A DNA stretch of 41,111 bases from a virus. Lineage: Duplodnaviria > Heunggongvirae > Uroviricota > Caudoviricetes. The notes beneath the pieces are model-generated. The model did no database searches, was not told the origin of the DNA, and saw only the letters and a list, made by a program, of their open reading frames with translations. Location of the stretch: the IMG/VR virus record IMGVR_UViG_2724679059_000002, positions 1 through 41,111 of that record. One strand, written 5' to 3'. Below, piece after piece: positions 32,669-36,319 of this stretch (position 1 is the stretch's first letter; every line of letters begins with the position of its first letter). The position numbers were made by a program, and so were the translations under genes.

Positions 32669-33013
32669 TCAGAACTCTTCGATGTTCCAGCCACCACCTG
32701 CTTTCTTTGGCTTAACCGTTACCCCGATGATTCGGAACGGATACTGATCTGCGGCGACTTTGGTTTTCACCCTAGCGTCATCGGTCCAGAAACCTTTCAC
32801 TTCGTGCAGTTCCATCTCGCCGGTGGCGAGCATCACAGCAAAATCGGGCGTATAGAACGTGTTGTCAGCTAACCGCAGCTTGAGACCCTCGAATCGATAC
32901 CAGGCGATTTCCCCTGCACGTTTACGCTGCTCAAGGTGCTGGCAATACGCAGATTCTGTTTTGTTCATCTGACCTGTTTTGAGTCGACCAAGAGCCTGTA
33001 TCTGTTTTCTCAT
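32669..33013 (-). CDS. DUF1064-family phage protein
   Basis: 114 aa with FYTPDF and HEVKG motifs characteristic of DUF1064; nin-like position after replication gene P. Confidence 0.5.
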   Translation of the reverse strand: MRKQIQALGRLKTGQMNKTESAYCQHLEQRKRAGEIAWYRFEGLKLRLADNTFYTPDFAVMLATGEMELHEVKGFWTDDARVKTKVAADQYPFRIIGVTVKPKKAGGGWNIEEF

Positions 33014-33016
33014 GAT

Positions 33017-33093
33017 TTACCCCTGAGGTAATTAAAAACCACATAAGACACGAAATCAATAGATTTTAGTATATTTTATTACCCGACAGGTAA
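33017..33093 (-). promoter_or_regulatory. Candidate internal promoter flanked by two operator-like palindromes
   Basis: On the - strand TTGATT-17 bp-TTTAAT, with TTACC-CCTGA-GGTAA (33017-33031) overlapping the RBS of the DUF1064 gene and TTACC-CGACA-GGTAA (33079-33093) upstream. Confidence 0.35.
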
Positions 33094-33130
33094 TCATTTA
33101 GGAGTAAAAAAATGCGCTATCGCGCTGGTA

Positions 33131-33907
33131 TTACTTGATAAATCCTGCCGCCTTTCCCCGCCTGTATTCCTCCATCAGCCACTGTGCCGGTGTTATTCCA
33201 CCCAGGGTGGCGGCGTTAGGCATGCACCCGAAACTTCGCCCTGGTGGATGGTAAACGTCTCTCCCTGTGTCCGGAGGTGTACTCATGGGTTCTGGCTTTG
33301 CCTGTATGCTGATCACCGGATCGGGTATCTGCTGTCCGGAAGCCACCTTTTTCGCCCAATCATCGAGCAACCTGCGCGCGTGTTTCTCAACCTCAATCTC
33401 GCTAAGCTGGCGCTGATACATTGCACGGCGGGTATCACATACTACCCAGTACATAACCGGATGTCGCCACGGGAATCTTTCGGGACCACCAGGATATAAA
33501 CTTTTTTCCTTGCTGTACCGGTGAAACTCCGCCATCACATCGTCAATGGTGACGCCAAGAACCATCTTGCTGTCTTTACACCACTTGATGAATTGCCCTG
33601 GCGACGGCCAGAACGGAGACTCACTGGCGCGGGCGTGGCGCATACCAGCGTTAACCTGTTCCATTGTAGTGATCCCATTCTCCAGAAACGCAAGCATCCA
33701 TTGCTTACGGAATTCATTAAGTTTGTTCTGCTCCCTTATGGTCGAAACGCTTGCAGGAAATGCAGCCTGTAACTGGACAAATAGTTCATTGAAAATTCTA
33801 GCGACCTGCTCCTTTTTGCCATTGCTGTCACGCCGCTCTTCATGCACAGCAACACCATGCTCACGTAAGCGATCGTACTCATTGAGAAGTTCTGGAGTTG
33901 ATTTCAT
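33131..33907 (-). CDS. P: Replication protein P-like (DnaB helicase loader)
   Basis: FPASVSTIREQNKLNEFRKQWMLAFLENGITTMEQVNAGMRHAR aligns closely with lambda P (FPASLANRDQNEVNEIRRQWVLAFRENGITTMEQVNAGMRVAR). Confidence 0.85.
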   Translation of the reverse strand: MKSTPELLNEYDRLREHGVAVHEERRDSNGKKEQVARIFNELFVQLQAAFPASVSTIREQNKLNEFRKQWMLAFLENGITTMEQVNAGMRHARASESPFWPSPGQFIKWCKDSKMVLGVTIDDVMAEFHRYSKEKSLYPGGPERFPWRHPVMYWVVCDTRRAMYQRQLSEIEVEKHARRLLDDWAKKVASGQQIPDPVISIQAKPEPMSTPPDTGRDVYHPPGRSFGCMPNAATLGGITPAQWLMEEYRRGKAAGFIK

Positions 33908-34721
33908 CCCACACCCCTTCTATCCAGTCAGTGTTATTCCAGTCAAGCTCATCGCTTTTCCCGACGTTTTTTGATTTTCCCCTGATATGATTTACGTGCC
34001 TGGCGAATTTTTGTTCCCACTGAACCTGCGTGAACACTTTGCCCTCAGCCATCCAGTAATCCCGGAATGCAGCAAGTTCAGCAGGTGTAAATTCCGGTTC
34101 CGGCAGGGCCGTTCCCCACAGCGCAGCACGCCGTCGAAAATCCGGCGACGGATGCCAGCCATCGGTCATCGGAAATTTCCCAATAGGTTCACTCAGGCCA
34201 TCCAGAAATGCAGGTTCTGCCACCTGCAACGGCGTACCGTTCGCTTCACTGGTCGGATCACTCTCGCGCGCGTGTGCTATGTGTGGGGTTTTATATATAT
34301 CTTCCTCTTCCTCTGGTAACTCCTTTTGTAACGCTGTTGGCGTTACTTTTTGCGTTACTCGTTTTCGATGCTCTGCCACTCTTCTATTCGTAAGTGCACG
34401 TTTTTTCGATGATTCTCCATTGTGTCGCTCAAAGTTTGGAAGAATTAGTTTGCCGTCATGATAAGCAAGCCATCCGACGCTAATGAGGGCGTCAGCAAAT
34501 CCTGTAATAAAAGCGAGTCTATCAAGTACTCCTTTTGTAACGCTGCCAGCGTTACCGTCTATTGTTTGCTGGTCAGCCCATGCCCATATACGAACCAGCT
34601 TTCCAAGAACAGCATCTGGATCAATACCCAGAATTTCTGCTATCTGAAAAATTTCAGGTTTATCAGGAGTGATAACTTCAACCTTAATCCAGCTGCTTGC
34701 CATAGGTTTCCCCTCTTGCAC
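33879..34721 (-). CDS. Replication initiator, lambda O-like by position
   Basis: Immediately upstream of and overlapping P; acidic linker EEEEDIY; contains iteron-like repeats. Confidence 0.55.
   Translation of the reverse strand: MQEGKPMASSWIKVEVITPDKPEIFQIAEILGIDPDAVLGKLVRIWAWADQQTIDGNAGSVTKGVLDRLAFITGFADALISVGWLAYHDGKLILPNFERHNGESSKKRALTNRRVAEHRKRVTQKVTPTALQKELPEEEEDIYKTPHIAHARESDPTSEANGTPLQVAEPAFLDGLSEPIGKFPMTDGWHPSPDFRRRAALWGTALPEPEFTPAELAAFRDYWMAEGKVFTQVQWEQKFARHVNHIRGKSKNVGKSDELDWNNTDWIEGVWDEINSRTSQ
34320..34555. repeat. Candidate replication-origin iterons inside the O-like gene
   Basis: Two 27-bp copies ctccttttgtaacgctgNNNgcgttac at 34320-34346 and 34529-34555, each with internal dyad GTAACGCTG/CAGCGTTAC, plus an extra GCGTTAC at ~34351. 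Confidence 0.45.
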
Positions 34722-34896
34722 TCTTTAGTGCACAAGCAAATTCATTACGATGGCGGTTGGCGCTATTCATTGCACATTCAACACATGTTCCGTTCAGAAC
34801 ATACCTTTCAGAGAGATGGCCGTGACGGCACCGCTTTCCTGTGAAATAGCGATTTAACCCGGCTTTTGCGGCCTCCATTCTGGTTACTATCTTCAA
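34684..34896 (-). CDS. Small Cys-rich (zinc-ribbon-like) protein between cro-like and O-like genes
   Basis: 70 aa, CRHGH...CVEC; occupies the position of cII in the lambda gene order but has no obvious similarity to it. Confidence 0.4.
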   Translation of the reverse strand: MKIVTRMEAAKAGLNRYFTGKRCRHGHLSERYVLNGTCVECAMNSANRHRNEFACALKSARGETYGKQLD

Positions 34897-34974
34897 TTTT
34901 TCCGCCTCTTTTTGTTATTGATATTGGATATTTTGCACAATTGGAAAATTTGATCAACCAGATTTGGTTTTTTA

Positions 34975-34989
34975 TTACCTTTGAGGTAC
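34975..34989. promoter_or_regulatory. Operator-like palindrome TTACC-TTTGA-GGTAC
   Basis: Member of the repeat family, just downstream (in transcription direction) of the hairpin at 35004-35023. Confidence 0.35.
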
Positions 34990-34995
34990 GAATAG

Positions 34996-35023
34996 ATATG
35001 AAAAGACCGCCGGGTGGCGGTCT
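34996..35023 (-). terminator. tR1-like terminator downstream of cro-like gene
   Basis: Perfect 8-bp stem agaccgcc-gggt-ggcggtct followed on the - strand by a U-rich tract (uuuucauaucuauu). Confidence 0.45.
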
Positions 35024-35044
35024 ACAGAGGGTTGTAGCTGGATA

Positions 35045-35275
35045 TCATGAGTAGAAGAAGTATGCCAGTTCTGCTTTTGAGCGCAGCCATTGTCTTGTTT
35101 TACAGGCTTTAAAAAGCCCATTCATCAATACTTTACCTGGCATTTTGCGCTTACCTGTTAAGTGAGTCTGGATATAGTGACTCGTCGTTCCGGCTTCCTG
35201 TGCGAAGGCTTCACGCTCATCCGGAGTAAGTGCAAGCCAGTGCTTTTTGAAATCGAAATGTCCGTTATCGCTCAT
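35045..35275 (-). CDS. Cro/CII-like HTH regulator (first gene of the operon divergent from the repressor)
   Basis: 76 aa; HTH-like segment AFAQEAGTTSHYIQTHLTGKR; divergent from the CI-like gene across an operator-containing region. Confidence 0.5.
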   Translation of the reverse strand: MSDNGHFDFKKHWLALTPDEREAFAQEAGTTSHYIQTHLTGKRKMPGKVLMNGLFKACKTRQWLRSKAELAYFFYS

Positions 35276-35311
35276 AGCTATTGCCTGATATTTATTTCAG
35301 ATAATAAATAT

Positions 35312-35374
35312 TCACCCATAAGGTAACAAAAATCAAGGATAGTTACCTATGAGGTGCATTTACCTGTTGGGTAA
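35312..35374. promoter_or_regulatory. Immunity-region operators: three TTACC-N5-GGTAA-type sites between cro-like and repressor genes
   Basis: Sites at 35312-35326 (TCACC-CATAA-GGTAA), 35343-35357 (TTACC-TATGA-GGTGC) and 35360-35374 (TTACC-TGTTG-GGTAA), centre spacing 31 and 17 bp; half-sites resemble lambda operator half-sites (TCACC / GGTA). Confidence 0.6.
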
Positions 35375-35429
35375 TATTGCTTTAAATTGAATCATCTACT
35401 GATTCATATATGAGGCGATTTTCCAGAAA

Positions 35430-36014
35430 ATGAAAAGTATCCAGGACGTCCGCAGGCAAAATCTCAACGACTTGATCGACCGTGAATTCAATGGTGTTCA
35501 GACGCGGATGGCAGAAAAACTTGGAACTCAGGCAAATCTGGTAAACCGCTGGGCTCTTGGCAAGAAGGTTATCGGCGACCAGGTTGCGCGAAAAATTGAA
35601 GCTGCCGCCAATAAACCCCGTAACTGGCTTGATATCGATCGCTCGCTTTCTCAGGAGGGGTTTCAGCCTGTCGGCCCAAGCGACATTGGTCAGCTGGCGG
35701 CTCACAACCTGGAACGCTGGATGAGCGAAAGCCGCGACCTTTCAACGCAGGGAAAACTACACCGCGCATCCGGCGTCGCCCAGGTGACAATCAGCCGCCT
35801 GTTAAACAATGAAGTCAGCGTTTCCATTTCCACCCTGGAGAATGTTGCATCCGCATTCGGGCGTCACGGCTATGAATTACTGATTCACCCGCACGACCCT
35901 GCGACTATCAACTATGACCGCTCGCGCTACGCATTGTTACCCGAAACAGAGAAGGCAAAGATCGAAAGTTACATTGAATTTGTCATCAGCCAGAACGAAA
36001 GAAGCAAACAATAA
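35430..36014 (+). CDS. CI-like prophage repressor with two HTH regions and no S24 peptidase domain
   Basis: HTH at QTRMAEKLGTQANLVNRWALGK and a second HTH-like segment ASGVAQVTISRLLNNE; no Ser-Lys autocleavage motifs; divergent from the cro-like gene. Confidence 0.6.
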   Translation: MKSIQDVRRQNLNDLIDREFNGVQTRMAEKLGTQANLVNRWALGKKVIGDQVARKIEAAANKPRNWLDIDRSLSQEGFQPVGPSDIGQLAAHNLERWMSESRDLSTQGKLHRASGVAQVTISRLLNNEVSVSISTLENVASAFGRHGYELLIHPHDPATINYDRSRYALLPETEKAKIESYIEFVISQNERSKQ

Positions 36015-36070
36015 AACTATAGTTTTCAGTAAGTAAGCCGCCTCATGGCGCTTTTTTATTGCCAACAAGA

Positions 36071-36147
36071 TTACCTTATGGGTAATTTTTTTAACTCATA
36101 TCTATTGACATCAAACCAAATACGCATAATTATTACCTCAACGGTAA
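36071..36147 (+). promoter_or_regulatory. PL-like early promoter with flanking operators
   Basis: Operator TTACC-TTATG-GGTAA (36071-36085), TTGACA (36105-36110), 17-bp spacer, AATTAT (36128-36133), operator TTACC-TCAAC-GGTAA (36133-36147). Confidence 0.5.
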
Positions 36148-36166
36148 CAGACCGAGGTAACAAGTT

Positions 36167-36319
36167 ATGCAGTGGAAAATCATCAACGGTTGGTACTGCG
36201 TTACTGCATGCGGATTCATGAGCTGGAAATTCCGCACCTTACAGGAAGGCATTAAGTGGGCTTTCGTCAGCAAAGAAGCTCGCGATGTGGCCAACGATAA
36301 CGAGATATGGGAGGGCTGA
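36167..36319 (+). CDS. Small ORF, first gene of the early-left operon (below track threshold)
   Basis: ATG at 36167 preceded by gagg; 50 codons (MQWKIINGWYCVTACGF...). Confidence 0.3.
   Translation: MQWKIINGWYCVTACGFMSWKFRTLQEGIKWAFVSKEARDVANDNEIWEG

Follow-up and report, generated by a model that had tools for sequence, protein, structure and literature searches.

The initiator gene and its neighbourhood

The window, by which we mean the whole stretch of 41,111 nucleotides that was analysed (IMG/VR virus record IMGVR_UViG_2724679059_000002, Caudoviricetes), carries on its minus strand a gene for a replication initiator, the end of which overlaps the start of a helicase loader gene. The genes and protein domains considered here are the following.

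34703 to 33879, minus strand: initiator gene, 274 aa
34359..34703, minus strand: initiator N-terminal domain, codons 1-115, putative origin-binding domain
33969..34175, minus strand: DnaT-like C-terminal domain of the initiator, codons 177-245; PF17948 (DnaT DNA-binding domain), E 1.1e-18
33131..33907, minus strand: lambda P-like helicase loader gene; PF06992, E 1.7e-55; phrog_109, 'P-like helicase loader'

The initiator most likely starts at the ATG at 34703 and not at the GTG at 34721, its homologues beginning at the former position (MASSW or MAGDW), and it belongs to phrog_2509, a family described as 'replication initiation protein' (E 1e-126). Upstream of it lie a Cro/cII-like gene and a divergent HTH repressor. 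The closest phage is Escherichia phage TL-2011b, with 99.9% identity across the initiator gene; the related Enterobacter phage BUCT554 and phage epsilon15 are both classified as Uetakevirus. The start of the initiator gene is overlapped by the end of a 70-aa open reading frame (34684-34896, minus strand; phrog_1081, unknown function), which has a Cys/His pattern (C-x-H-x-H ... C-x2-C) and may encode a small zinc-binding protein of the replication operon.

The C-terminal domain of the initiator, besides its DnaT match, also matches PDB entry 6aep (primosomal protein 1, E 1.1e-20). Residues 1-115 gave no Pfam family, in the window protein or in 15 homologues, the best match being Phage_rep_org_N at E 0.024 in one of the 15, and no solved relative of this domain was found. 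Its AlphaFold model (pLDDT 78) predicts the succession helix-helix-helix-helix-hairpin-long basic helix, and the fold matches of this predicted model were weak and mostly to winged-helix structures. Homology of the N-terminal domain to lambda O, to DUF1376/YdaU and to plasmid Rep families was considered, and none was found. The initial annotation had called the gene O-like, a description that holds for its position and its partner gene and fails for the protein itself, whose N-terminal domain has no Pfam match, that of lambda O included, and whose C-terminal domain is DnaT-like.

Two unequal clusters of a 7-bp half-site inside the initiator gene

The repeats had been described at first as two near-identical 27-bp iteron-like copies about 210 bp apart, within the replication initiator gene. 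The pattern CTCCTTTTGTAACGCTG-NNN-GCGTTAC has exactly two matches, at 34320-34346 and 34529-34555 on the plus strand, separated by 209 bp and both inside the minus-strand initiator gene, in agreement with that description. When up to 3 mismatches were permitted, the 27-nt pattern had 0 matches in 100 dinucleotide-preserving shuffles. A repeat search extended each copy to 28 nt at 89% identity, the only differing bases being the three in the central spacer, and both copies contain the dyad GTAACGC-N5-GCGTTAC.

An extra GCGTTAC half-site nearby, also part of the initial description, is present at 34352-34358, and a fourth half-site (GGTAAC, 34315-34320) had been overlooked. With this fourth half-site, the left cluster becomes symmetric around position 34337 (GTAAC-N7-GTAAC-N9-GTTAC-N7-GTTAC) and reads, in gene orientation, GTAAC-gcaaaaa-GTAACgc-caaca-gcGTTAC-aaaagga-GTTAC. 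The window contains 13 occurrences of GTAACGC, where 4.3 ± 1.9 would be expected, and 34328-34555 alone accounts for five of them. As judged from the sequence, the actual unit is not a 27-bp iteron, as first proposed, but the 7-bp half-site GTAACGC with an invariant TAACG core, set in an 11-12 bp register and gathered in two clusters:

34315..34358: proximal iteron array (site B), with half-sites at 34316-34320 (GTAAC), 34328-34334 (GTAACGC), 34340-34346 (GCGTTAC) and 34352-34358 (GCGTTAC)
34537..34555: distal dyad (site A), GTAACGCTGCCAGCGTTAC, encoding the initiator loop G50-N-A-G-S-V-T56

The two copies had been treated as equivalents and turn out to be unequal. The proximal array, which includes the first copy, has two direct and two inverted half-sites beside a probable unwinding element and corresponds to codons 116-130, after the N-terminal domain (1-115) and before the DnaT domain (177-245), that is, to the linker between the domains. 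The distal dyad, which is the core of the second copy, is in contrast a single dyad in the coding sequence of the N-terminal domain, 209 bp upstream of the proximal array.

The repetition does not extend to the protein, since the reading frame differs between the copies: counted from the ATG, the copy at 34529-34555 begins at offset 148 (frame 1) and encodes GNAGSVTKG, and that at 34320-34346 begins at offset 357 (frame 0) and encodes VTPTALQKE, with no peptide in common. The peptide-repeat reading was rejected on these grounds. Consistently with the original proposal, the repetition is a matter of the DNA and not of a duplicated peptide with synonymous variation, given both this difference in frame and the invariance of the repeats amid neighbouring third positions that vary.

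A conserved purine tract and an AT stretch adjoin the proximal array

The initial annotation had suggested a search for further half-sites and for an adjacent AT-rich stretch, and both were found. The elements that follow the proximal array, in the direction of the gene, are these.

34301..34314, minus strand (coding strand): polypurine tract, (GAGGAA)2, directly after the last half-site
34289..34300: AT-only stretch, TTTTATATATAT, 12 bp; with the polypurine tract, it forms the candidate DNA unwinding element
34261..34288: alternating CG/TG-rich stretch, CTCTCGCGCGCGTGTGCTATGTGTGGGG, flanking the AT stretch

In about 60 of 67 loci, the array passes into a purine-only tract through a conserved junction, half-site-C(C)(A/T)A(G/A)AGAAGAG; the conservation of the purine tract is confounded with coding, since a charged Glu/Lys/Arg linker also requires purine-rich DNA. 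The GAGGAA unit is present twice in the window and 3-5 times in other homologues. These units encode a poly-Glu linker, and their number ranges from 2 to 5 among sequences with 91-100% identity in the N-terminal domain (the window and loci L085-L136), a variation that looks like slippage in the purine tract adjoining the repeats. Within 33131-34900, which covers the two replication genes, the 30-mer from 34290 is the least stable duplex (dG -32.7 kcal/mol); across the whole window the AT-only stretch, only 12 bp long, lies at about the 96th percentile of instability and is not the minimum.

The adjoining segment 34261-34288 alternates purines and pyrimidines (CGCGCGCGTGTG...TGTGTG), and a stretch of the GCGCGCG type follows the AT stretch at the equivalent place in epsilon15, BUCT554 and Pseudomonas loci. 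This segment could be Z-DNA-prone, or could merely reflect a coding constraint of the DnaT-type module. On the other side of the tract, many homologues have spacers rich in A, as read on the coding strand, between their half-sites, a composition that could give rise to phased bending.

Sites of this kind might serve as operators, which the initiator or another phage regulator would bind and loop so as to limit expression of the replication operon at the level of transcription or translation. In iteron plasmids, Rep dimers autoregulate on inverted repeats, and an operator function here would resemble that situation. The inverted-repeat cores do fit binding by a dimer, there are two separate clusters, 209 bp apart, and both lie in a transcribed early operon, downstream of the repressor and Cro-like genes. 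However, neither cluster is at a promoter, no promoter-like site being present in the gene at the cluster positions, and the constant polypurine/AT junction at the domain linker would be left without a role, whereas initiator sites beside an easily melted stretch are the standard layout of an origin (PMC7466680). Operators in place of an origin are in our judgement unlikely, while operator and origin functions could coexist.

At the AT stretch, moreover, the N-terminal and C-terminal modules of the gene are joined in mosaic fashion. Homology to BUCT554 and to a Klebsiella phage extends only from 34300 upward, and that to an Actinobacillus phage covers only 33980-34298, where it is fused to a different N-terminal domain with repeats of its own. 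In this Actinobacillus phage (vB_Apl-pPE4), the different N-terminal domain carries CCTAAGGATAAG twice and CAGATAA twice. Such a joint, falling exactly at the AT stretch, and the fusion of the N-terminal domain to many different C-terminal domains are what one would see if the conserved stretch were mainly a recombination linker, a short segment common to phages that have otherwise diverged and maintained for the exchange of modules, with no role in initiation. A linker of this sort leaves unexplained the distal dyad, the 11-12 bp register and the joint changes of half-sites in both clusters described below, and recombination at an origin would be expected simply because the origin is conserved; we hold a linker function alone to be highly improbable.

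The two clusters are conserved at the DNA level in distant homologues

A profile of the N-terminal domain matched 9,450 cluster representatives, 6,643 of them at E <= 1e-10, and in nearly all of the matches listed the domain was N-terminal, in proteins of about 140-380 aa. A protein query with the N-terminal 129 residues gave 67 matches, none longer than 226 aa, and the wider sample was drawn from related loci and from the search of representatives. The sample comprised 80 species-level loci and 80 viral contigs, and the species came from Enterobacteria, Pseudomonas, Burkholderiales, Xanthomonadales, Planctomycetota and Verrucomicrobiota, including Akkermansia.

In 81 species-level loci, GTAACG/CGTTAC was found 139 times at nucleotides 120-240 of the gene and 215 times at nucleotides 300-420; elsewhere, within 1.5 kb on either side, there were 0-3 occurrences per strand per 60-nt bin, with 5 and 3 just upstream of the start. 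In the alignment with BUCT554 and the Klebsiella phage, both repeats are invariant except for the dyad spacer, and the flanking codons differ at nearly every third position.

Codon choice under the distal dyad is close to fixed among the 81 species. Asn51 is encoded by AAC and Ser54 by AGC in 100% of them, although six codons are possible for the serine, and Val55 (GTT, 92%), Lys57 (AAA, 92%) and Ala52 (GCT, 87%) are nearly as uniform; Gly50 is GGT in 92%, against 4% for the same codon at the invariant Gly34 and 7% at the invariant Gly96. Read across these species, the near-fixed codons are a sign of selection at the DNA level. Insertions in the distal loop are of 12 nt, and each adds one half-site (GNA-NS-NAASVT). 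The dyad is missing in L043 and L047 and is thus dispensable in some loci; the loops of these two are unrelated (GDEMKFT and GESLLIT), and it is therefore probably the DNA that drives the conservation of G-N-A-x-S-V-T elsewhere.

The equivalent of the proximal array was found in 70 of the 81 species-level homologues, with 1-3 forward and 1-4 reverse half-sites. The offset from forward to reverse half-sites is constant at 14 nt (67 of 67 loci), half-sites in direct orientation are 11 or 12 nt apart, and the occurrence of half-sites in two reading frames across loci (91 versus 25) is a further sign of selection on the DNA. Examined for helical phasing, the distance between the clusters gave a resultant length of 0.46-0.54 for periods of 10-12 bp, a value that, in sequences related to one another, speaks neither for nor against phasing.

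Dyads could also act as hairpins in single-stranded DNA or in mRNA, be it as a priming or primosome-assembly signal that unwinding would expose, such as a site recognised by PriA, as an element of mRNA stability or translation, or as an antisense terminator. The predicted single-strand hairpins have energies of -7.4 to -8.8 kcal/mol (z about -4), changes in the arms are compensatory across lineages, the first copy is terminator-like on the plus strand (34328-34346, then TTTTT), and the C-terminal domain is DnaT-like. Against this, in 43 of 70 loci the array is asymmetric, its forward half-sites not being equal in number to its reverse ones, and many direct copies therefore lack a pairing partner. 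The mismatches within the dyads are G.G, C.C and C.A, at outer and inner positions, with T.G only twice, so that there is no wobble signature, and the N-terminal domain is also found, together with its sites, next to unrelated C-terminal domains. An antisense terminator, in particular, was not supported: the T run follows the first copy only, the stem has 4 GC pairs out of 8, and the spacer varies in homologues. An Rfam search of 33000-36200 returned no match at E <= 1. A role as hairpins appears, on balance, quite unlikely.

Half-sites change jointly in both clusters, and residue 109 tracks their class

Where a lineage has a different half-site, copies of it are found in both clusters and scarcely anywhere else in the 2-3 kb locus, a co-variation that is partly confounded by shared ancestry among related sequences. 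Expressed as copies in the first ~500 nt of the gene over copies in the locus, the counts were as follows.

GTTGCGC: 8/8 (L033)
GTCACG: 9/10 (L077; also used in L082 and L083)
GTGACG: 7/7 (L078)
GTAGACG: 5/5 (L080)
GTCCGC: 8/9 (epsilon15; also used in phiPSA1)

Epsilon15 has its proximal array and junction (GCGGACCAGAGAAGAG...GATATTAAACCCC) in the same layout as the window, and its distal cluster at codons 18-35, versus codons 50-56 in the lineage of the window. This distal cluster of epsilon15 (L167:1554-1606), like that of phiPSA1, holds 4-5 copies of GTCCGC/GCGGAC at a spacing of 11 nt; in these two phages it seems to have arisen or moved independently.

The class of half-site was accompanied by the identity of residue 109 of the initiator, which is V with GTAAC, M with GTTGC, Q with GTCAC and GTAGAC, N with GTGAC and K with GTCCGC. 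M109 goes with GTTGC in L033 and also in L069 and L076, whose sequences differ substantially from that of L033. Given the relatedness of the sequences, this association of residue 109 with the half-site is suggestive only; as a lead, residue 109, in the basic helix 97-114, may help to read the variable positions of the half-site. Residue 105 also tracks the half-site class, less closely than residue 109, and residues 105 and 109 (34377-34391, minus strand) are candidate specificity determinants within this helix.

Comparison with known replication origins

In iteron plasmids of the pPS10, F, R6K and RK2 type, one Rep specificity acts on direct and inverted repeats beside an unwinding element, and sites and Rep protein evolve together. 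The locus studied here is similar in having direct and inverted repeats beside a candidate unwinding element, and in the apparent co-evolution of sites and protein. It differs from these plasmids in that the initiator has no Pfam match to any plasmid Rep family, in that the repeats lie inside coding sequence, and in that the half-sites are much shorter than the plasmid iterons of 17-22 bp.

In lambda, the origin lies in the middle of O and is made up of iterons and an AT-rich tract, P being encoded downstream, and in Stx phages, some origins of which have six iterons, extra iterons lengthen the O protein (PMC7466680). The present locus shares with lambda the position in the middle of the initiator gene, at a domain junction, the dyad-symmetric repeats (for which binding is putative here) beside an AT-rich stretch, the P-type loader immediately downstream and the transcription of the region from the early operon; as in Stx phages, additional repeats lengthen the protein, here through the 12-nt insertions in the distal loop. 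Unlike in lambda, however, the N-terminal domain has no Pfam match, including to the families of lambda O (Phage_rep_O / HTH_36), and the C-terminal domain is DnaT-like. The lambda repeats are four tandem iterons of ~19 bp, whereas those of the window are 7-bp half-sites, direct and inverted, with a register of 11-12 bp; another cluster lies ~200 bp away, in the coding sequence of the putative DNA-binding domain; and a polypurine tract separates the repeats from the AT stretch.

A further parallel is the domesticated lambda O/P-like pair DopC/DopE, in which the protein in the O position has a DnaT domain at its C terminus and the next one is P-like (PMC5509034). DopC has an N-terminal domain of the lambda O type (HTH_36), whereas that of the window protein is of another family, and no iterons were found in the DopC gene by Brezellec et al. 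2017 (PMC5509034), in contrast with the prominent iteron-like arrays of the window gene.

The Rac prophage has been reported to carry an active origin, oriJ (PMC3945230). The ydaU-ydaV region of Rac in E. coli K-12 resembles the window in its gene order (repressor, cro-like gene, initiator, loader) and in having repeats in the middle of the initiator gene, ydaU, namely four AGATGTTCAA and an inverted TGTTTGAACA, followed by an AT-rich stretch. In MG1655 (L166:4470-4660), the repeats of the AGATGTTCAA type are spaced by 33, 33 and 12, and two ATCCCCCCC also follow; these mid-gene repeats may be the sequence of oriJ. The repeats of the two systems differ, as do the proteins: K-12 YdaU, a DUF1376 protein, shows no detectable similarity to the window initiator (BLASTP E 0.27), and DUF1376 matches YdaU and not the window protein. 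A Rac-like prophage, that of E. coli 442/2, has a gene labelled 'ydaU' that is a member of the family of the window initiator, with 66% identity over 138 residues and 70% over the N-terminal domain (tblastn).

A probable bipartite origin of replication

The context of the repeats is origin-like: the array falls at a domain linker, the purine-tract junction and the AT stretch come after it, and the gene of the P-like loader is next. From these comparisons of sequence we consider it probable, with a good measure of confidence, that the repeats are initiator-binding sites (iterons) of a bipartite phage origin located inside the initiator gene and working in the manner of lambda ori. Since the layout is kept in related initiator genes of several bacterial phyla, it would represent a so far undescribed type of phage origin. 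Our literature search found no report of binding, unwinding or origin activity for this initiator family, and no description of such an origin under DnaT-type phage initiators with iterons, under the origins of TL-2011b, phiV10 or epsilon15, or under the motif itself.

In the mechanism that we propose for this bipartite origin, dimers or oligomers of the N-terminal domain would bind both clusters and bend or loop the intervening DNA, and the resulting strain would open the adjoining AT/polypurine stretch. The DnaT-like domain would then hold the single strand and recruit the lambda P-like loader, product of the next gene, with host DnaB, while transcription of the early operon would pass through the origin, as it does in lambda.

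A broader proposal, to which we give somewhat less than even chances, is that these genes form a very widespread and undescribed class of origin and initiator. The origin would be bipartite, with one cluster in the sequence encoding the initiator's own DNA-binding domain, so that the G-N-A-x-S-V-T motif would be largely a by-product of the DNA site, and specificity would have been re-set several times (GTAAC, GTCAC, GTTGC, GTGAC, GTAGAC, GTCCGC) by matched changes in both clusters and at residue 109.

Significance

An origin inside the initiator gene is a textbook concept and, as such, an ordinary kind of element. If confirmed, the one proposed here would assign an origin to the Uetakevirus-like phages (TL-2011b, epsilon15 and their relatives) and to thousands of prophages in Enterobacteria, Pseudomonas, Xanthomonas, Ralstonia, Planctomycetota and Akkermansia, whose initiators are annotated just as 'primosomal protein I' or 'hypothetical'. 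It would also account for the recombination of initiator modules exactly at this point and thus for a feature of phage mosaicism. The locus would be a case of dual coding, in which a putative site fixes the choice of codons, and apparently the sequence of a loop, in the very protein that probably binds that site. The lineage-specific half-sites, together with a candidate specificity residue, offer a testable route to mutually orthogonal replicons, and if the proposal of a widespread class with re-set specificities were true, these phages would hold a natural, readable recognition code for such replicons.
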